Below, in pieces: positions 21,728 to 58,053 of a stretch of DNA of 64,000 nucleotides. Each line of letters opens with the position of its first letter. Position 1 is the first letter of the stretch. Under the pieces are notes generated by a model. The model ran no database searches, had not been told where the DNA came from, and worked only from the letters and a program-made list of their open reading frames with translations. A program made the position numbers and the translations under genes. The stretch lies in NCBI GenBank assembly GCA_041674405.1, contig JBAYVT010000002.1, positions 23,158-87,157 of the forward strand, in the 5' to 3' direction. This stretch comes from Patescibacteria group bacterium (GTDB taxonomy: Bacteria > Patescibacteriota > UBA1384 > XYA2-FULL-43-10).

Positions 21728-22660
21728 TTGCCTTACAGGCTTAAAGATCATCATTTAAACCATATATTTAGCATAATAAATAAGTATTATGAAATTTATG
21801 GCGTTTCCAAAAAAAGCAAAAAATTTTCTAGAATTGAAATTGCATCAGATTTAATCTGGATAAACGGCAGATCACAAATGCCACCCAAAAAAGTCTTGTT
21901 TGAAGACCAACAGATAATTTCGGAAGATCTCAATAAAAAGATTGCTTTCGTTGGCATGCCCCTGTGTGATGTCTCGGCCATCCATCATTTAATTTACAAA
22001 TTAAGAGATTCTGGATTAGTACCGGATCGAGATGATCTGTTGCTGATTGCATCTGAATGTAAGCCAGACGATGCTTGTTTTTGTGAATTTTTCGGTACTG
22101 ATAAGCGATCAGGTTTTGATATTTATATTCAAAAAAATAGCAGTGGGTACGATGCATTCTCAGGGACAGCTGCTGGAGAAAAAATTTTAAAAAAATTAGC
22201 GCTAATGCCTGATCACAAATTAAACCTGCGCCCAGTTACCCATAAGTCCCTAAACAAATTGTCCAAGGAAGAAATAACAAAACTGATTGAAAAACGCGGC
22301 CAATTTGATGACTTATGGAACAAGATTGCAAATAACTGCTTTGGTTGTGGCGCCTGCACAGCTGTTTGCCCGCTTTGTTATTGTTTTAGACAAGAAGAGA
22401 AAAATAATTTAGATGGCAGCTGCAAATCTTGCATAAATTGGGATTCTTGCTTTGCAAAAGAATTTTCCGAAGTACAAAATAGAGCTGATTTACGGCCTCA
22501 AAATGTTGACCGGCTATATAATTGGTATCATCACAAATTTGTCCGCTCCCCTTATCTTTGCGTCGGATGTGGACGATGTATCAAGGCTTGCCCTGCAAAT
22601 TTAAATATTAAAAATATTCTTTTATCAATTGAAAAGTTAGGCGAAAAAAGTGATGAATAG
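21728..22660 (+). CDS. Hydrogenase iron-sulfur subunit (HydB-like; two 4Fe-4S ferredoxin motifs plus additional Cys clusters)
   Basis: CFGCGACTAVCP and CVGCGRCIKACP. The start is uncertain: the listed TTG could be replaced by an in-frame ATG at 21878. Confidence 0.6.
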   Translation: MPYRLKDHHLNHIFSIINKYYEIYGVSKKSKKFSRIEIASDLIWINGRSQMPPKKVLFEDQQIISEDLNKKIAFVGMPLCDVSAIHHLIYKLRDSGLVPDRDDLLLIASECKPDDACFCEFFGTDKRSGFDIYIQKNSSGYDAFSGTAAGEKILKKLALMPDHKLNLRPVTHKSLNKLSKEEITKLIEKRGQFDDLWNKIANNCFGCGACTAVCPLCYCFRQEEKNNLDGSCKSCINWDSCFAKEFSEVQNRADLRPQNVDRLYNWYHHKFVRSPYLCVGCGRCIKACPANLNIKNILLSIEKLGEKSDE

Positions 22661-23450
22661 CCCTTTTTCATATCGTGAATATAAAATTACTAACAAAACT
22701 GAAGTTGCTCCAGATACATTTCTGTTTCGACTTAGAGGAAAATTGAAATTTGATCCAGGGCAATTTGTCCAGGTAAAATTTCCCCATATCGGAGAAGTGA
22801 CTCTGGTTCCCTGCTCTAAAAAAGATGAAAAAACATATTTTGAACTTTGCGTTCGCAGAGCCGGAAATACGACCGAAAAAATATCTGAAAAGGTACCGGG
22901 TGATTCGATGTTTGTTCGAGGGCCATATGGGCACGGATGGCCAATCGGCAAAACATTGGAAAAAGATATTTTGCTGATTTCCGGCGGCATCGGAATCATC
23001 CCGCTTATGCCGCTTATGGATGAACTGGTGAAATATCGAGGTAATTTTGGGAAAATCTACTTTCTCGCCGGATTTAAAACTCCGCACCACGTCATGTTTG
23101 AACAGGATCTTTTGCGTTACAAAAAGAAAATAAGCTATTTCAAGGTTGCGGTCGAAAAAACCGACAGAGATTGGTGGGGTGAAAATTGTATGATCACCGA
23201 CTTGATTAAAAACACAAATCTGAGTCCAAATATCAATGTATTTCTATGTGGTCCGGAAATTATGTTTCGCCCCTGCGTCGATGTTCTATTACAAAAAAAA
23301 ATTAATCCGAAAAATATTTACGTTTCTTTCGAGCGAAGAATGGAATGCGGGATCGGTTTTTGCCAACATTGTACTATAGGCAAGTATAAAGTTTGTGAGG
23401 ATGGCCCCATATTTACCTGGAGCAAAATAGCACCGGAGTTAGAAAAATGA
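22650..23450 (+). CDS. Hydrogenase FAD/NAD(P)-binding subunit with a C-terminal 2Fe-2S site (HydG/AsrB/PyrK-like)
   Basis: Ferredoxin-reductase-type fold, and C-terminal CGIGFCQHC...C. Confidence 0.7.
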   Translation: MMNSPFSYREYKITNKTEVAPDTFLFRLRGKLKFDPGQFVQVKFPHIGEVTLVPCSKKDEKTYFELCVRRAGNTTEKISEKVPGDSMFVRGPYGHGWPIGKTLEKDILLISGGIGIIPLMPLMDELVKYRGNFGKIYFLAGFKTPHHVMFEQDLLRYKKKISYFKVAVEKTDRDWWGENCMITDLIKNTNLSPNINVFLCGPEIMFRPCVDVLLQKKINPKNIYVSFERRMECGIGFCQHCTIGKYKVCEDGPIFTWSKIAPELEK

Positions 23451-24178
23451 ATGCAATATTCCCCAAAAAAACACTAGGAATTTTTTCTCTCACTTGTTGC
23501 GAAGGTTGCCAATTTTCGCTGTTAAAGGACTTTGTTGGTTTTGAAAAAATCACAAGATTTTATGAAATAAAAAGTTTTCGCCTCGGGCAAGAAGAAAATG
23601 ACGAATGCTTTTTTGATGTTTCGCTTGTTGAGGGAACACCCGAGTCAACTCGGGAACTTGAGCATTTGAAAAAGATAAGAAAAGTATCGAAAGCAGTTGT
23701 TTCAATTGGCGCTTGTGCACATTTAGGCGGTATTCAATCAGAGCGAAATCGCTTACCTAAAAAATACATCGGAAAAGAAAAAGTTAAAAAAATTAGTGAC
23801 ATAATAAAAGTAGATTTGGTTATTCCTGGCTGCCCGATTTCCCACAAGGAGGCAGTGGCCGCCCTTCTTGACACATATTGGGGCAAAAAATTTCGGCCGA
23901 AGGATTATGCCGTATGTTTCGAATGTAGAAAAAATGAAAATGAATGCTTGATAAAAAATGGCAGACCCTGCCTGGGCCCGATCACCCGGGGAGGATGTGA
24001 TAGTGTTTGTATAAATGGTGGAGAATTGTGTCTTGGGTGCCGCGGTGCGTTAGATCAAACGAATTTTAATAAAATTAAAGAAATACTAAACCCGATGATC
24101 GGAGAAGACAAAACGAATAATCTCCTTACCATATATGGAGACCTGGAACAAGAATGGAAAGATCAGGACAGACAATGA
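23447..24178 (+). CDS. [NiFe] hydrogenase small subunit (HydD-like)
   Basis: CCEGCQ proximal-cluster motif, GACAHLGG, PGCPIS. Confidence 0.75.
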   Translation: MNAIFPKKTLGIFSLTCCEGCQFSLLKDFVGFEKITRFYEIKSFRLGQEENDECFFDVSLVEGTPESTRELEHLKKIRKVSKAVVSIGACAHLGGIQSERNRLPKKYIGKEKVKKISDIIKVDLVIPGCPISHKEAVAALLDTYWGKKFRPKDYAVCFECRKNENECLIKNGRPCLGPITRGGCDSVCINGGELCLGCRGALDQTNFNKIKEILNPMIGEDKTNNLLTIYGDLEQEWKDQDRQ

Positions 24179-25092
24179 AATTTGAAGAATTAAAGAAAAT
24201 ACTAGCAAGTAAAATAGAATTTAAAGATTTTGACGACCCTGATGTCGTAAAAATTAATGCCGGTATAGTAAGTAATCATAAATATAAAATTAAAAGCCAC
24301 AATTCGAGTTTTTTTGTAAAAGAGATCAAAGACAACGAGGCAAATATTCTCAAAATATTAGATATGATTGATCTAGATTTCTATCCCAAAATCTTATATC
24401 TTGATCTACTCGATAAAAATATCCTCGTCTCCGAATTTATTGAGGGTGACGCACTGCAATCTTGGGAGATTCAGGACAATCTTCTGCTAGGTTTTACCCA
24501 AATGCAAAATTTGATGAATAATATTAGTTTCCTCAAAGAAAAAGAAATATTTGGTATTTCGAATTTTAGCGAAACTGATGGTGGTTTTTTCCGAAATCAA
24601 ATAACAGAAAATTTTTTATATGGATTGGAAACACTTGATGACTTGTCAAAAACTAATTTGCCAATCGTAAAAAAACACTTCGAGTTGGTATCTTTTTTGA
24701 AGAAAGATAAGCAAAAAATATTTGATGATTTTTCAAACATGCCGTTTGCGAGGCAACATCACGATTTCAAGCAGGACAACATCATTGGAAATCCACAAAA
24801 ATTGGTTGATTGGGGATCTTCTTATGGATATGGGCCATTTTTGTTTGATCTTGCTCCTTTTTTGTTAAACAATAAAAACCAATTAGAACTATACAAATCA
24901 AAATCAGATGTCTGCAAGGGCTTTACAGACCGCCAGATAAATCGCTGGCTTTATGTCGCCGCTGTAGCAAGATATATGGAAGATTTGAGATATAGAATTA
25001 GCGATAATGGATGGAATTCGTCTAAAGAAAAATGCGAACGCTTTCTTGAGAGCGAGTATGATAATTATCAGTCATTGCTTGATAAAATATAG
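24175..25092 (+). CDS. APH/choline-kinase-fold phosphotransferase (kinase-like)
   Basis: Lys in FFVKEIKD, Glu in EANILKIL, catalytic loop HHDFKQDN (HxDxxxxN), and DWG (DFG equivalent). Its ATG overlaps the hydD TGA (ATGA). An AGGAGA SD for hydA follows. Confidence 0.55.
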   Translation: MKFEELKKILASKIEFKDFDDPDVVKINAGIVSNHKYKIKSHNSSFFVKEIKDNEANILKILDMIDLDFYPKILYLDLLDKNILVSEFIEGDALQSWEIQDNLLLGFTQMQNLMNNISFLKEKEIFGISNFSETDGGFFRNQITENFLYGLETLDDLSKTNLPIVKKHFELVSFLKKDKQKIFDDFSNMPFARQHHDFKQDNIIGNPQKLVDWGSSYGYGPFLFDLAPFLLNNKNQLELYKSKSDVCKGFTDRQINRWLYVAAVARYMEDLRYRISDNGWNSSKEKCERFLESEYDNYQSLLDKI

Positions 25093-25114
25093 CTAAAATT
25101 TCAGGAGATAGATC

Positions 25115-26362
25115 ATGAGTTCATCAGTTCCCAAAATTGAAGGACACGCTACTTTTTACGCCCATCTTCGTGCCGGAAAAGTTGACAAGGCCAGAATTAT
25201 TGGCCTTGATGGAGATCGGTTTGTTGAAAAAATATTATTCGGGCGCAGCTATATGGAAGTACCAGTAATTACCTCTCGCATCTGTGGTATATGCCCCGTA
25301 ATTCACAATGTTACCTCAACCAAAGCTGTGGAAAATGCTCTCGATATCAAGGTTTCCGAACAAGTAGAAACACTGCGGAAACTAATGCTCTGTGGCCAGA
25401 TGGTTCAGAGCCACTCGCTTCATCTATACCTTCTGGTTCTTCCCGATTTCATGGGAATGTCTTCCTCTTTCGAGCTTCAAAAAAAGCACCCGGATATTTT
25501 TGCCGATGCAGTTGCCCTAAAATCATATGCCGATAGTATTATTGAGATAATCGGAGGCAGGGCAGTTCATCCGGTTTCGAACGTACCTGGCGGTTTCAAA
25601 AAATTTCCGGAAATTTCTGAATTACGGAAATTACTGGAAGAAAGTAAAAAGATGACCGATCTTGGGATTAAAACATTAAAGCTTTTTCAGTCATTTAATT
25701 ATCCTGAAATTTCCCGCAAGATAATTTACTCGGCGTTGTCTGACCTGAATGAATATGCTTTCTATGGCGGAGAAATCAAGACCACGAGCGGTGAGAATTT
25801 TAAAGCAAAAGATTATAAAAAATATATTTACGAAGAAATTCTGCCATATAATCGTGCGAAATTTGGAACGCTCAAGGGCAAAGAAATGATGGTTGGCGCA
25901 ATTGCCCGGATTAATCTCAACAAGAAACAATTGGAAAAAGAAATTGGAAGTTTGAAGGAACTTGGTGTAGGTGAAGAGCTGTCCGATAATCCATTCGGTA
26001 ACATAATTGCCCAAGCAATTGAAAACTATTATTTTATCGTAAAATCAGAAGCGATAATTGAAAAATTAATTAAAGAGGGTATTTCCGAAGAGTCAATAGT
26101 TGAACCAAAAAAAATTGATGAAGGAGTTGCTGCTTGCGAAGCACCGCGTGGAACGCTGTTTCACTACTACAAATTTGACAAAGAAGGTATGCTTGAAAAG
26201 TGTGATATTGTTACGCCAACCGTACAAAATCTGCCAGCATTGGAATATGACATGAAAAAACTCGGCCCCTTTCTCAAGGACTTGGACGAAACAGAGAGAA
26301 CAGAAATGATTGAGATGCTTATTCGTTCATATGACCCATGCATCACTTGCGCCACACATTAA
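25115..26362 (+). CDS. [NiFe] hydrogenase large subunit (group-3b-like)
   Basis: N-terminal RICGICPVIH and C-terminal DPCITCATH immediately followed by the stop codon. Confidence 0.85.
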   Translation: MSSSVPKIEGHATFYAHLRAGKVDKARIIGLDGDRFVEKILFGRSYMEVPVITSRICGICPVIHNVTSTKAVENALDIKVSEQVETLRKLMLCGQMVQSHSLHLYLLVLPDFMGMSSSFELQKKHPDIFADAVALKSYADSIIEIIGGRAVHPVSNVPGGFKKFPEISELRKLLEESKKMTDLGIKTLKLFQSFNYPEISRKIIYSALSDLNEYAFYGGEIKTTSGENFKAKDYKKYIYEEILPYNRAKFGTLKGKEMMVGAIARINLNKKQLEKEIGSLKELGVGEELSDNPFGNIIAQAIENYYFIVKSEAIIEKLIKEGISEESIVEPKKIDEGVAACEAPRGTLFHYYKFDKEGMLEKCDIVTPTVQNLPALEYDMKKLGPFLKDLDETERTEMIEMLIRSYDPCITCATH

Positions 26363-28305: not shown

Positions 28306-29094
28306 TTATGGTTTCCTAGAAACGAAAACTAATCCGATCGGGTAGGTTTTTGGAAACTTAGGTTGTTTTTCAAGAAGTTCGGCGGTTACTTCCGGCTCTA
28401 ACATTTTTTCAACCACAAACCCCGCTTTAATCAAAGAATTAAAATAATCAGAAATCGGCCGTTGATAATGTTCAATCTCGTAAACCTTTTGGTATTTTTG
28501 AGCAACATCAACATCCCGAATCTTACTGTTGTCCATTGTAAATTTCGAGTATCCCCTACTAAAATACCCTTTCGATCCCCGAATGGTCCTCTCTTTCCCG
28601 TCGGCTTGTCCCCGCAAATAGGTAACGAGATCCCATACAGGGTGAGTGATTGCAAACAAAAACCGTCCTCCGTTTTTCAAGGTTTTAAAAGCCTGGGACG
28701 TAACAAAGTCAATCTCTTCGAGTTCGTTCAGCAAGAAACCTGAAAAAATTACATCTACGGAATTCGGTTTTATTTTCCAGGGTTTGGTAACATCTTGTTC
28801 AATAAATTCGGCTATATTGGTCTGAACTCTTTTTCTCGCAAAATCCAAATTATGGGGAGATATGTCGATTAGAATTAGTCGATCTGGGTTCTGACCCTCA
28901 ATTTGCGAACTGAAATAACCGTTGCCGCACCCCAAATCAACCACCGTCTTCCCGTTTAACGTTCCAATCTCAGATAATAATTGCGGGTTGAGCACATATT
29001 GTTTGTAGACCCCGCCATTATCTCCGGTCGCTTCGTTCCAAAAACTCGCAAATTCAGGATCTAAATATGCAGAAATCGCATTATTCTGTGTCAT
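28306..29094 (-). CDS. Class I SAM-dependent methyltransferase
   Basis: VVDLGCGNGYFS motif I, DVIFSGF. Confidence 0.7.
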   Translation of the reverse strand: MTQNNAISAYLDPEFASFWNEATGDNGGVYKQYVLNPQLLSEIGTLNGKTVVDLGCGNGYFSSQIEGQNPDRLILIDISPHNLDFARKRVQTNIAEFIEQDVTKPWKIKPNSVDVIFSGFLLNELEEIDFVTSQAFKTLKNGGRFLFAITHPVWDLVTYLRGQADGKERTIRGSKGYFSRGYSKFTMDNSKIRDVDVAQKYQKVYEIEHYQRPISDYFNSLIKAGFVVEKMLEPEVTAELLEKQPKFPKTYPIGLVFVSRKP

Positions 29095-29314
29095 GGTGGT
29101 CCATTTCTTTATGGGTTTTTATAAATTTTAAGTTCTCTTTTGCTTCGGTTTCGGAGATTTTTGAAAGTGCCCTGCCGTCGTGCATCAAAATCCAATCCCC
29201 GACTTTAGGATTTTGAACTAGAGAAATATCGGCCTTGTATTCTTCACCCTCATAATCAAAAAGGGCAATTGCCCCTTTGATTTCTTTGATTTTTCCAGGT
29301 ATTGCTAAACACAT
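29081..29314 (-). CDS. hypC: [NiFe] hydrogenase maturation factor HypC/HupF
   Basis: MCLAIPGKIKEI... with the conserved N-terminal Met-Cys, and VGDWILMHDGRAL. The start is trimmed to the MC motif (ATG at 29312-29314). Confidence 0.75.
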   Translation of the reverse strand: MCLAIPGKIKEIKGAIALFDYEGEEYKADISLVQNPKVGDWILMHDGRALSKISETEAKENLKFIKTHKEMDHHDTE

Positions 29315-29370
29315 GGTCACTACACTCCAAATCAAAAATCAAAATTTAAAAATCAAAAAATTGGAATTAT

Positions 29371-55671: not shown

Positions 55672-58053
55672 TCAATTATTATACACATAATGCAAGTATA
55701 TGTCACCAGATTTTGTTATTTCTTTGTCATTTAAATTCTCGAATCGGGCTGAAAGCCGGAATGTTTTACCATCAGATACATAGCCATAAAACCAGCCCTC
55801 AGACGATTTTGGATCTGCCGGAATCACATCGATATAAGTTGGCACAATTGCCTTTTCGACTAGATTGCCAGCCGTATTTATATTAAGCAAGGCCGAAGAT
55901 ATCGGATATTTACCATATTTTTGCTTATAAGCTTCAAGACCGCCTTTGATTTTGGCAAGATCTGATCTGCGTAAATTGTCATTTGTTTCTGCCGTTGACG
56001 CTTGTGCGTTGCTTGAAGACCCGTAAGTGCTGCCAGGGGTAGTATCCGAGCTTGATGATGAAGAACTCGTTGCAATTTCTATTTTATCACCAAGGCTTGG
56101 TATCGTAATGGTATTTTCTACATCGTAACCGGAAAAGTCTATATTTATCTCAGCCCGTGTTACAGAAGAAGAAATAGATGGGATGATAATCAGGTCAGCT
56201 TTGTGTATGAGATGGTCTGAAATTCCAATCCAAATATTGCCATCGATTTTTTGTACCATTTCACTCTTTATCCCTAATTTATCAAATATTCCGCCGATTT
56301 CAAGTTTGTCTATCTGGTAATTGTAACATCGTACTCCTCCGATTTTCTCGTTAGCAACACGGCTACCAATGATGGAAAAACCTTGGTCTGGTTTGGCTGC
56401 ATAGAATTGGGACATAGCATTTCCACTATCTGCCAGTGCCGAAAGTTTATAATCAAGCCACTTGTTCGGGTCTGCTTTTTCGTTAAATTTTATATCACTT
56501 CCCGCTTTAACATATAAATCGTTGGCTGAATTCAACAAAGAAATTTTGCTGTCTGATCCTACTAATTTTTTAACTGTGATGTCCAGAGAGAATGCATTTT
56601 TGTTGGACGAACCAGAAAACGTAAAATCCAGCTGCTTTACTGTGGTTTCTTGTGATTGGTAGCTTGGATAAGAAGACTGGTCCCCTAAATTAGTTGTGGA
56701 ATTGGTGGCAGAATTATTTGCCGAATTTGAATTGTCCGTTGCGGAGTCAACAGATGGTGTAGAAGAATATGACGAACTACCATAAATATCGGATGCTGTA
56801 GAATCCGTGCTCGTCGAAGAATCACCAGAATAATAGCTTTCGTATTGGGCCAATACTCCGGAAATTGAATTGCTTATTTCGCTGTCAGATAGTGCATAAG
56901 GAAGGGCAATGGCCGACACAAGCGGCGAGGTTATGTTTGAATTTATTGTTTTATTGACGGTCAGAGACAAGGTTCCGGACATTTTAAAATTCGGATGATT
57001 TTGATTGTTGGCAACTGCTATTGCTAGAGCTTTTTCTGGATTTTTTGGCAGGCCACCCCACAAGTTCTCAAGGCCAATAGCACCATAAATATTTTCGAGC
57101 CCCAATGACATTACGCCGGCTTCGGTTAAAAACGTGACCGCCACAATCAACAGAATTGCGCACGAAGTAATTACAAAAGCCGGCCTTTTCAAAAGGGGTG
57201 GTTTACTGCTTTTGGCAAACTGGGGAGCTGCACCCACCTGCTTAGCACCCGATTGCATAGGTTTCACAGGCGCACCGGAAACAGAAGGCATTTTTGCGTA
57301 TGGCGGAACAGCAGCCGTTGTATTATTCGTCTTTGCTTGGCTGGGATTTACCGGTAACGTTGGCAAAACCGGCTCACCCACGGGCTTTTCGGAAGAAGGT
57401 TTGCGTTTTTTAAAAAATCCAAATATACCGGCCTTCTTGGGCTTGTTAATAGATGGCATATCCGAAGAAACCGGCTTATTAATTTCCGGCTGCTTGATAT
57501 CACTTAGAGAATTATTTGTAGTTTTTTGGGTATTGACCGGTTGTTGAGGCAGTGGCGGCATTGCCGCATCTTCCAATTGTTTTCCATCAGGCGTCGATAA
57601 ATCAATAACCGGTGGCGAGGATTTTTCTTGGGGCAAATTTTCAGTAACATCGGGCTTGCTTGCATTTTCGACAATCTGATTTCCAGCAGGATCAATCTTT
57701 GGTTGTGGTTGCTCTAAAAGAGGGCCAACGGGCGTAGTTTCTGGTTTAGCCATTTCGGCTGTTTCGGTTGCCTTTTTGGAGGCTACTTCTGGTGCAGTAT
57801 TTGGTTTATTTGCCGGCACAGAAGCTTGGTCATTGGCAGCAACAGACGAAGCAGGAATTTTTTTGCCAACCTGCTCGTCAATCTCCTTGGGAATGTTAAA
57901 AGGAACGGGTTTTTCCTCCGGTTCATTAGAAACATTTTCATTATCCAATGTTCCGACAATTTTGGGCTTATTTCCTTCTTCGGGAAGATCAACTGGGTCG
58001 TCCCAGGGACTGCCTCCGGTTCCCGAAGCGGTATTTGTATCGTCTAGGTCCAT
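55672..58053 (-). CDS. Large bitopic surface protein: disordered N-terminal region, one TM, S/T-rich ectodomain, pseudopilin-like C-terminal domain
   Basis: 793 aa. TM at about residue 300 (FVITSCAILLIVAVTFL). C-terminus DLAKIKGGLEAYKQKYGKYP...DPK...YGYVSDGKTFRL resembles the GspG / type IV pilin globular domain. Confidence 0.55.
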   Translation of the reverse strand: MDLDDTNTASGTGGSPWDDPVDLPEEGNKPKIVGTLDNENVSNEPEEKPVPFNIPKEIDEQVGKKIPASSVAANDQASVPANKPNTAPEVASKKATETAEMAKPETTPVGPLLEQPQPKIDPAGNQIVENASKPDVTENLPQEKSSPPVIDLSTPDGKQLEDAAMPPLPQQPVNTQKTTNNSLSDIKQPEINKPVSSDMPSINKPKKAGIFGFFKKRKPSSEKPVGEPVLPTLPVNPSQAKTNNTTAAVPPYAKMPSVSGAPVKPMQSGAKQVGAAPQFAKSSKPPLLKRPAFVITSCAILLIVAVTFLTEAGVMSLGLENIYGAIGLENLWGGLPKNPEKALAIAVANNQNHPNFKMSGTLSLTVNKTINSNITSPLVSAIALPYALSDSEISNSISGVLAQYESYYSGDSSTSTDSTASDIYGSSSYSSTPSVDSATDNSNSANNSATNSTTNLGDQSSYPSYQSQETTVKQLDFTFSGSSNKNAFSLDITVKKLVGSDSKISLLNSANDLYVKAGSDIKFNEKADPNKWLDYKLSALADSGNAMSQFYAAKPDQGFSIIGSRVANEKIGGVRCYNYQIDKLEIGGIFDKLGIKSEMVQKIDGNIWIGISDHLIHKADLIIIPSISSSVTRAEINIDFSGYDVENTITIPSLGDKIEIATSSSSSSSDTTPGSTYGSSSNAQASTAETNDNLRRSDLAKIKGGLEAYKQKYGKYPISSALLNINTAGNLVEKAIVPTYIDVIPADPKSSEGWFYGYVSDGKTFRLSARFENLNDKEITKSGDIYLHYVYNN

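Follow-up and report, generated by a model that had tools for sequence, protein, structure and literature searches.

What is a kinase-fold gene doing between the small- and large-subunit genes of a [NiFe] hydrogenase operon, and does it serve the hydrogenase or merely travel with it? We addressed this question in a stretch of 64,000 nucleotides of Patescibacteria DNA, here called the window. An ORF of this kind had been placed between the two subunit genes in a preliminary description, and its presence there is confirmed by the sequence, by Pfam and NCBIfam searches and by independent assemblies. We consider it probable (roughly 70%) that the gene encodes a catalytically competent, dispensable cargo kinase, which rides on the hydrogenase operon at an insertion-prone, translationally coupled junction. 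The features of the locus are as follows.

21728-22660, + strand, HydB/ShyB-like beta (FeS) subunit of the hydrogenase, at the head of the operon (Pfam Fer4_22, 3e-20)
22650-23450, + strand, hydrogenase gamma subunit (FAD/NAD(P) and FeS), HydG-like (Pfam FAD_binding_6, NAD_binding_1 and DHODB_Fe-S_bind)
23447-24178, + strand, [NiFe] hydrogenase small subunit, HydD/ShyD-like (Pfam Oxidored_q6, 3.7e-21; NCBIfam ShyD, 4e-45)
24175-24178, + strand, ATGA stop/start overlap (HydD TGA at 24176-24178, kinase ATG at 24175-24177)
24175-25092, + strand, kinase ORF of 305 aa, from a rare APH-superfamily (PF01636) clade, insert specific to the lineage
24319-24339, + strand, codons from the ATP-binding Lys49 (24319-24321) to the helix-C Glu55 (24337-24339), invariant in 53 of 53 family members
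24757-24780, + strand, catalytic loop H195-H-D197-F-K-Q200-D-N202 (HxDxxxxN), in a region that matches Pfam APH positions 166-210
24808-24816, + strand, D212-W-G, metal-binding DFG-equivalent (D212 invariant; W213 and G214 at least 96% conserved)
25093-25114, + strand, 22-nt spacer from the kinase to HydA, with AGGAG at 25103-25107, homologous to the L009 spacer
25115-26362, + strand, [NiFe] hydrogenase large subunit, HydA/ShyA-like (Pfam NiFeSe_Hases, 2.6e-39; NCBIfam ShyA, 7e-84)
29081-29335, − strand, HypC/HupF chaperone (Pfam HupF_HypC, 3.5e-21)

Pfam and NCBIfam agree on the gene order, FeS beta subunit, FAD/NAD gamma subunit, small subunit, kinase ORF and large subunit, and thereby uphold the earlier assignment to group 3b (hydBGDA). 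The beta subunit matches the NCBIfam models sulfhyd_ShyB (1.6e-27) and HydB (1.3e-26), both under the equivalog cut-offs, and the gamma subunit matches the AsrB/HydG-like models at 1e-49 to 2e-56, with AsrB at the top and HydG/ShyC close behind. The NCBIfam scores of all four Hyd subunits lie under the equivalog cut-offs, i.e., the subunits are divergent. HydA retains both NiFe-binding CxxC pairs, the N-terminal one in RICGICPVIH and the C-terminal one in DPCITCATH, and both are conserved in the orthologs; the protein ends with ...DPCITCATH and has no C-terminal extension, a type of C-terminus that is shared by 14 orthologs. With four subunits whose best matches are the sulfhydrogenase Hyd/Shy models, the host operon is a group 3b-type (HydBGDA-like) [NiFe]-hydrogenase operon. 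HypC/HupF, the sole Hyp gene among the scanned ORFs of the window, is part of the conserved neighbourhood and occupies an equivalent relative position in orthologous loci. The hydrogenase operon is situated among glycolytic genes. The window is bacterial, as it also encodes EF-Ts, RRF, S2, UvrC, RseP and trigger factor, and the database entry that corresponds to its HydA carries the label Patescibacteria.

The kinase ORF is intact from 24175 to the TAG stop at 25090-25092 and encodes 305 residues, one fewer than first reported, and the described ATGA overlap of its start with the small-subunit TGA is read directly from the sequence. A second in-frame ATG is located at 24154; the ATG at 24175 is the likely start because the family members align from this Met in a 53-sequence alignment. 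Downstream of the kinase, the 22-nt gap stands, but it runs to the HydA ATG rather than to the Shine-Dalgarno sequence, which lies inside the gap as AGGAG, 7 nt 5´ of the ATG at 25115. The pattern of this spacer, CTAAA...CAGGAG...ATG, is common to the window and locus L009. The identical kinase-in-operon arrangement recurs in separately made assemblies of this organism (ENA ERZ27247358 and Logan SRR6484325), and it is thus not an assembly chimera.

The G+C content of the kinase gene is 32%, compared with 36–40% in the neighbouring genes. A promoter/terminator scan of the kinase junctions gave nothing above background, and a terminator-like hairpin inside the ORF (24932-24949) is weak and single and was judged to be due to chance. 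The flanking direct and inverted repeats are unconvincing as an insertion scar, being short AT-rich two-copy matches only; the kinase's two junctions resemble each other because both contain a Shine-Dalgarno sequence and an ATG. Searches with the kinase for defence and phage families (PADLOC and PHROGs) returned zero matches.

The APH/choline-kinase hallmarks listed in the preliminary description (Lys, Glu, HHDFKQDN and DWG) are all present, as K49, E55, H195-H-D197-F-K-Q-D-N202 and D212-W-G. K49, E55, H195, D197 and D212 are invariant in the 53-sequence alignment, together with G30, L103, P190, S215, G220, P221, D225 and F229, and all motif residues other than Q200 and N202 are invariant or nearly so. 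The family consensus of the catalytic loop is H-H-D-F-[KR]-E-x-N. Position 202, which is Asn in the window kinase, is His or Gln in a subset of the 53 members, and position 200 is Gln in both hydrogenase-embedded copies (window and L009) and Glu in 51 of 51 other members.

Structure prediction and the HMM matches of the family bear out the proposed kinase fold. The window kinase scores 21.1 bits against Pfam APH (PF01636), under the gathering cut-off of 23.2, with residues 189–230 alone aligned, while APH is matched by 44 of the 53 family members (E<=0.1; best 2.1e-12). The Choline_kinase model is unmatched in all 53 members and the Fructosamin_kin model matches one (E 0.0095); no subfamily-specific HMM assigns the kinase to a named APH subfamily (choline/ethanolamine kinase, MtnK, homoserine kinase II or fructosamine kinase). 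NCBIfam yields zero matches at E<=1, and the PDB yields zero sequence matches with either the single sequence or the family profile. Against the known [NiFe]-hydrogenase subunits, HypA-F and endopeptidase in Pfam and NCBIfam, the kinase shows the weak APH match alone. By the Pkinase HMM and the ePK-type C-lobe, it does not belong to the eukaryotic-like Ser/Thr protein kinases, and the sole histidine-kinase match in Pfam, HisK_N, is weak and falls short of the threshold (E 0.075).

The AlphaFold model computed from the family alignment (pLDDT 92.1, pTM 0.90) adopts a bilobal kinase fold with an APH-type helical C-lobe. Its top Foldseek matches in the PDB are Plasmodium choline kinase, APH(9)-Ia, LicA and APH(2''), and the fold is nearer to small-molecule kinases than to protein kinases. 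The kinase shares the bilobal fold and the helical substrate subdomains with the APH/ChoK-like kinases (corramycin phosphotransferase 8agy, APH(9)-Ia 3i0o, MTR kinase 2pyw, and the choline kinases 3fi8 and 4r77 LicA), as well as the β3 Lys, the helix-C Glu, HxDxxxxN, DxG and a single domain of about 300 aa. It differs from them in forming its own small clade, with only 11–19% identity to any solved structure. This clade is small at every scale searched: 61 relatives were found among 5.8 billion proteins, and 74, many of them fragments, at E<=1e-3 when an HMM was run exhaustively against 1.84 billion cluster representatives, with a sharp score cliff between the clade and the remaining superfamily. 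The alignments and the model thus place the protein in an uncharacterised clade of the APH/choline-kinase (PF01636) superfamily that is both rare and discrete, and the protein very probably acts as a small-molecule kinase; its fold and motifs suggest that the candidate substrate is a hydroxyl of a small metabolite or antibiotic-like compound rather than a hydrogenase subunit.

If the kinase were a hydrogenase part, it should recur in related operons. A large-subunit scan of species-representative genomes gave 16 loci (L014-L029), 13 at 59–65% identity and 3 distant, and the kinase is absent from all 16 by tblastn and the family HMM (E<=10). Where the flanks are long enough, the orthologs have the framework PfkB-FBA-PGK / HydBGDA / ABC-ABC / HypC-GAPDH-TIM-CofD in common, and therefore the operon appears to be vertically inherited and the kinase to be the novelty. 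A HydA protein search gave closer homologs, and the closest two among those 70–80% identical, L070 and L071, were inspected. L070, the nearest relative (HydA 80% identical to the window), has a 23S_rRNA_IVP (PF05635) gene between the small and large subunits, whereas HydD and HydA of L071 (HydA 75%) overlap by 4 nt without an insert. The sole kinase homolog in the order FeS, FAD, small subunit, kinase, large subunit is P0002 (72% identical; loci L009 and L010). In neighbor-joining trees of HydA and HydD, the window, L070, L009 and L071 form one clade, in which L009, with the kinase, and L071, without an insert, are sisters (HydA 89.9%, HydD 87.2% and HydG 81.9% identity).

The distribution is therefore patchy. 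The preliminary description proposed a survey of group 3b loci for the same insertion; it is found in 2 of 17 close hyd1-type loci, the window and L009, and the kinase is missing from L071, L070, the 13 syntenic orthologs and the 3 distant operons. A fortuitous insertion had been pictured as a gene absent from all orthologous hydrogenase loci and served by a separate promoter; the absence is nearly complete (15 of the 16 closest orthologous operons, the window's own not counted), and there are no signs of a separate promoter. The kinase divergence (72%) is in step with the HydA divergence (74–75%). The comparison favours a history in which the kinase was gained once, before the four loci of this clade diverged, and was later lost from L071 and replaced by another gene in L070; alternatively, the kinase cassette may have been transferred between related populations.

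The tight coupling of the kinase to HydD has a precedent in operons without it. HydD and HydA overlap by 1–52 nt in 8 of 10 insert-free orthologs (within L014-L028) and also in L071, and an ATGA-type 4-nt overlap occurs in L016, L027 and L071. In L071, HydD ends with ...ENLK* and its TGA overlaps the HydA ATG; in L009, HydD ends with ...RLRDI* at essentially the same position and overlaps the kinase ATG instead. By this comparison, the ATGA coupling predates the kinase and is inherited from the ancestral HydD/HydA overlap. The coupling belongs to the junction and was taken on by the kinase; it is therefore not evidence of a functional link.

Junctions of this operon also hold other genes. An extra gene is present at an operon junction in at least 10 of the 17 hyd1-type loci:

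L014, B/G junction, hexapeptide transferase
L015, D/A junction, PDDEXK_3 (PF13366)
L018, D/A junction, GIY-YIG (PF01541) and a small membrane ORF
L019, G/D junction, 153-aa ORF with no family assigned
L020, L021 and L023, G/D junction, and L070, D/A junction, 23S_rRNA_IVP (PF05635), four loci
window and L009, D/A junction, kinase

In addition, the D/A junction of L023 contains a stretch of roughly 420 nt without an ORF of at least 50 aa, and that of L026, a more distant operon, contains an Ldh_2 dehydrogenase. The hydrogenase operon junctions are insertion-prone, and the inserts differ between close relatives. 23S_rRNA_IVP, GIY-YIG and PDDEXK_3 are families generally regarded as selfish or mobile. 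Their ORFs resemble the kinase in lying at inter-cistronic junctions on the same strand and in varying between close relatives; however, they are 90–140 aa long, whereas the kinase is a 305-aa enzyme of a metabolic/resistance superfamily.

Outside the two embedded lineages, the kinase family keeps other company. Eight homologs inspected individually all lie in unrelated contexts, among them all four at 51–54% identity (L011, L012, L013 and L067); so do the homologs at 40–46%, some of which come from MAGs that bear the names Woesearchaeota, Nanoarchaeota and Hodarchaeota. Scanning metagenomes with the family alignment added 37 kinase loci, of which 24 extend 1.8 kb or more beyond the kinase on one side; HydB, HydG, HydD and HydA are missing from the flanks of all 37. 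Altogether, hydrogenase genes accompany 0 of about 45 non-embedded kinase-family loci. An AIRS-domain gene near the L012 homolog was considered as a second hydrogenase link and rejected, as it encodes PurM (NCBIfam 1.9e-46) and not HypE (2.3e-06).

Where it is present, the kinase looks functional. Its pN/pS is 0.22, within the range of the Hyd subunits (0.16–0.27), with synonymous sites saturated, and it evolves at the rate of the hydrogenase subunits, being retained at an identical position in two long-diverged lineages (dS saturated). These ratios indicate that the kinase is under purifying selection and functional where present. An inactive remnant or pseudo-kinase passenger without function is accordingly very improbable: the protein alone does fall under the Pfam gathering threshold and E200Q departs from the family consensus, but the ORF is full-length with all catalytic residues intact, the pN/pS is low over a saturated synonymous distance, and the fold is predicted with confidence.

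The kinase is most likely a passenger and not a new hydrogenase part, because its closest relatives run the hydrogenase without it. On the passenger reading, the gene would have been inserted exactly at the ancestral HydD/HydA stop/start overlap of a vertically inherited group 3b operon, in a narrow Patescibacteria lineage. It would have taken over the ancestral translational coupling to HydD, while HydA would stay translated thanks to a newly arisen 22-nt spacer that carries a Shine-Dalgarno sequence; with the inherited coupling and this spacer, the kinase would be expressed by riding on the operon's transcript. Purifying selection would keep it where it is present, and it would be dispensable for the hydrogenase; sister lineages in fact do without it or have some other, unrelated gene in its place. 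We infer that the kinase is catalytically active, co-transcribed with the operon and independent of hydrogenase function. Several points count against a passenger: the retention at the same site in two lineages, the shared E200Q, which could mark a functional shift after insertion, and a co-expression that the architecture guarantees and that is possibly adaptive.

The same points are the basis of an unlikely alternative, in which the kinase was co-opted after insertion as a lineage-specific accessory that regulates or services the group 3b hydrogenase, for instance by phosphorylating one of its subunits or by producing a phosphorylated effector connected with the NAD(P)H/H2 balance. Being translated in stoichiometric amounts with the two flanking subunits would suit such a role, and so would the purifying selection on a gene that two diverged lineages keep at one site, its close coupling to both neighbours in the absence of internal promoters and terminators, and a catalytic-loop E200Q that is specific to the embedded copies. 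However, the sister locus L071, whose HydA is 90% identical to that of L009, lacks the kinase, L070 has an unrelated gene in its place, and 16 further related operons are without it. The family is never hydrogenase-linked at the other inspected loci, the coupling is ancestral to the junction, and the fold is closest to small-molecule rather than protein kinases. The component, maturation factor or regulator that the preliminary description implied is thus not supported, in view of the near-absence from the closest operons, the hydrogenase-free family and the ancestral coupling. A slightly less likely version has a horizontally acquired kinase co-opted to control the hydrogenase or to make a phosphorylated effector through which H2 production is tied to fermentative carbon flux; because of the purifying selection and the shared E200Q, lineage-specific co-option retains this small probability.

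A different proposal is that the cargo serves resistance or detoxification: a small mobile gene would have landed in the operon by chance, and its product would inactivate an antibiotic-like compound as the APH, Mph, corramycin and amicoumacin kinases do. This is doubtful, if less so than co-option. The fold is that of such enzymes, yet MTR kinase, aminopropanol kinase, homoserine kinase II and choline kinase score almost as well (11–19% identity), and therefore the fold rank does not discriminate resistance from metabolism. Furthermore, the kinase matches no known resistance family in Pfam or NCBIfam, and no mobile-element genes, flanking repeats, or defence or phage family matches were found at its locus.

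Kinases that do work with hydrogenases or in dedicated gene clusters differ from the passenger considered here. The HupT/HoxJ histidine kinase is the partner of regulatory group 2b hydrogenases and is conserved together with the sensory hydrogenase and a response regulator. It resembles the window kinase in being genetically associated with a [NiFe] hydrogenase, and differs in its histidine-kinase fold and its conserved association. Similarly, the microcompartment aminopropanol kinase (6ef6) is a conserved and functionally integrated member of its cluster, whereas the window kinase is absent from nearly all orthologous operons. As the preliminary description held, the kinase is not a described hydrogenase component: none appears in the CPR hydrogenase literature consulted, and no paper turned up on an APH-type phosphotransferase encoded within a hydrogenase operon. 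The CPR 'hyd1' group 3b operons have a variable context, and their beta and gamma genes are in some cases not direct neighbours (Jaffe et al., 2020, PMC7304191), in agreement with the insertion-prone junctions observed here. They resemble the window in their beta, gamma, small and large genes, in the nearby HypC and in belonging to Patescibacteria; in contrast, a kinase, which that paper does not mention, splits the small/large pair in the two lineages described here and is confined to them.

A true hydrogenase accessory would represent a new type of regulation or maturation for [NiFe] hydrogenases, but the evidence points the other way. In these reduced genomes, a shared function does not follow from tight embedding in an operon or from translational coupling, and the repeated acceptance of unrelated genes by CPR hydrogenase junctions may be of more interest than the kinase itself. 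The tiny kinase clade, which occurs in both archaea and Patescibacteria, is a candidate for substrate discovery. As a substrate clue, no neighbour of the kinase family is conserved beyond small groups of near-identical contigs, in which AAA_33 is found in 6 loci and Bac_luciferase in 5. A kinase-methyltransferase pairing was rejected, as it reflects generic SAM-fold similarity alone (25–29% over about 100 aa). The window carries a lineage-specific methyltransferase 3 kb downstream, and the kinase homologs L004 and L011 also adjoin methyltransferases.

In the syntenic HydBGDA operon of Patescibacteria (the group 3b-type [NiFe] hydrogenase), unrelated genes on the same strand recur at the junctions between cistrons, and their identity varies among close relatives. 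Extra genes at these junctions are found at the following loci:

window 24175-25092 (+), the APH-superfamily kinase gene
L014, L015, L018-L021, L023 and L070, related hydrogenase operons

The junction genes in the relatives comprise four 23S_rRNA_IVP genes, a GIY-YIG gene, a PDDEXK_3 gene, a hexapeptide transferase and an unknown 153-aa ORF. Because differing, unrelated genes recur at the junctions of close relatives, the distribution suggests that these sites are an insertion hotspot, or that a mechanism targets overlapping stop/start junctions. The ~420 nt that separate HydD from HydA in L023 (L023:5555-5994) contain no ORF of at least 50 aa on either strand; an insert that has decayed, or else a non-coding element, may account for this stretch.

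A second lineage-specific insert lies in the neighbourhood of the kinase:

window 28306-29094 (-), class I SAM methyltransferase gene, between an ABC permease gene and HypC

This gene overlaps HypC by 14 nt, and its counterpart was found in no orthologous locus. Where the ABC and HypC genes are both present, the distance between them is 62-448 nt in five loci, ~4 nt in L071 (one of the closest relatives) and 1.7-2.1 kb in L018 and L019. The PADLOC 'mad2' match of the methyltransferase is limited to the SAM-binding domain.

More distant group 3b-type operons, which are hosted by Kerfeldbacteria and others, carry further genes among the hydrogenase subunits:

L025:3630-4454, L026:2045-2875 and L029:3458-4267, conserved ~270-aa protein without a Pfam match
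L026:5012-5983, gene of the Ldh_2 (malate/L-lactate dehydrogenase) family, at the small|large subunit junction in the Kerfeldbacteria operon

The gene for the ~270-aa protein is located between the gamma and small subunit genes in all three loci, where it adjoins an EamA transporter gene and HypC, and its product is a better candidate than the kinase for a truly hydrogenase-linked unknown. The Ldh_2 gene in L026 is preceded by a 109-aa membrane ORF.

The 3' end of HydA (window 26335-26362) encodes DPCITCATH followed by a stop. Comparison with 14 relatives from L014-L028, including L025 and L026, revealed the same exact end, DPC(I/M)TCATH, in each, and neither the window HydA nor these relatives bear a C-terminal extension cleavable by a maturation endopeptidase. 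Among the ~45 window ORFs scanned, no Hyp gene other than HypC (29081-29335) was detected. Elsewhere in the window, a 793-aa ORF (55672-58053, -) gave no match in a Pfam search at E<=1e-4.

One of the closest kinase homologs (P0004, 51% identical) is encoded at a locus with a tandem arrangement:

L067:132-908 and L067:898-1827, two APH-like genes with overlapping ends

In a subset of the kinase family, which includes P0024, P0031 and P0036, the Asn of the catalytic loop HxDxxxxN (position 202 of the window protein in alignment A1) is replaced by His or Gln. By analogy, this Asn would serve as a metal ligand. The other active-site residues remain conserved in the substituted members (alignment A1).
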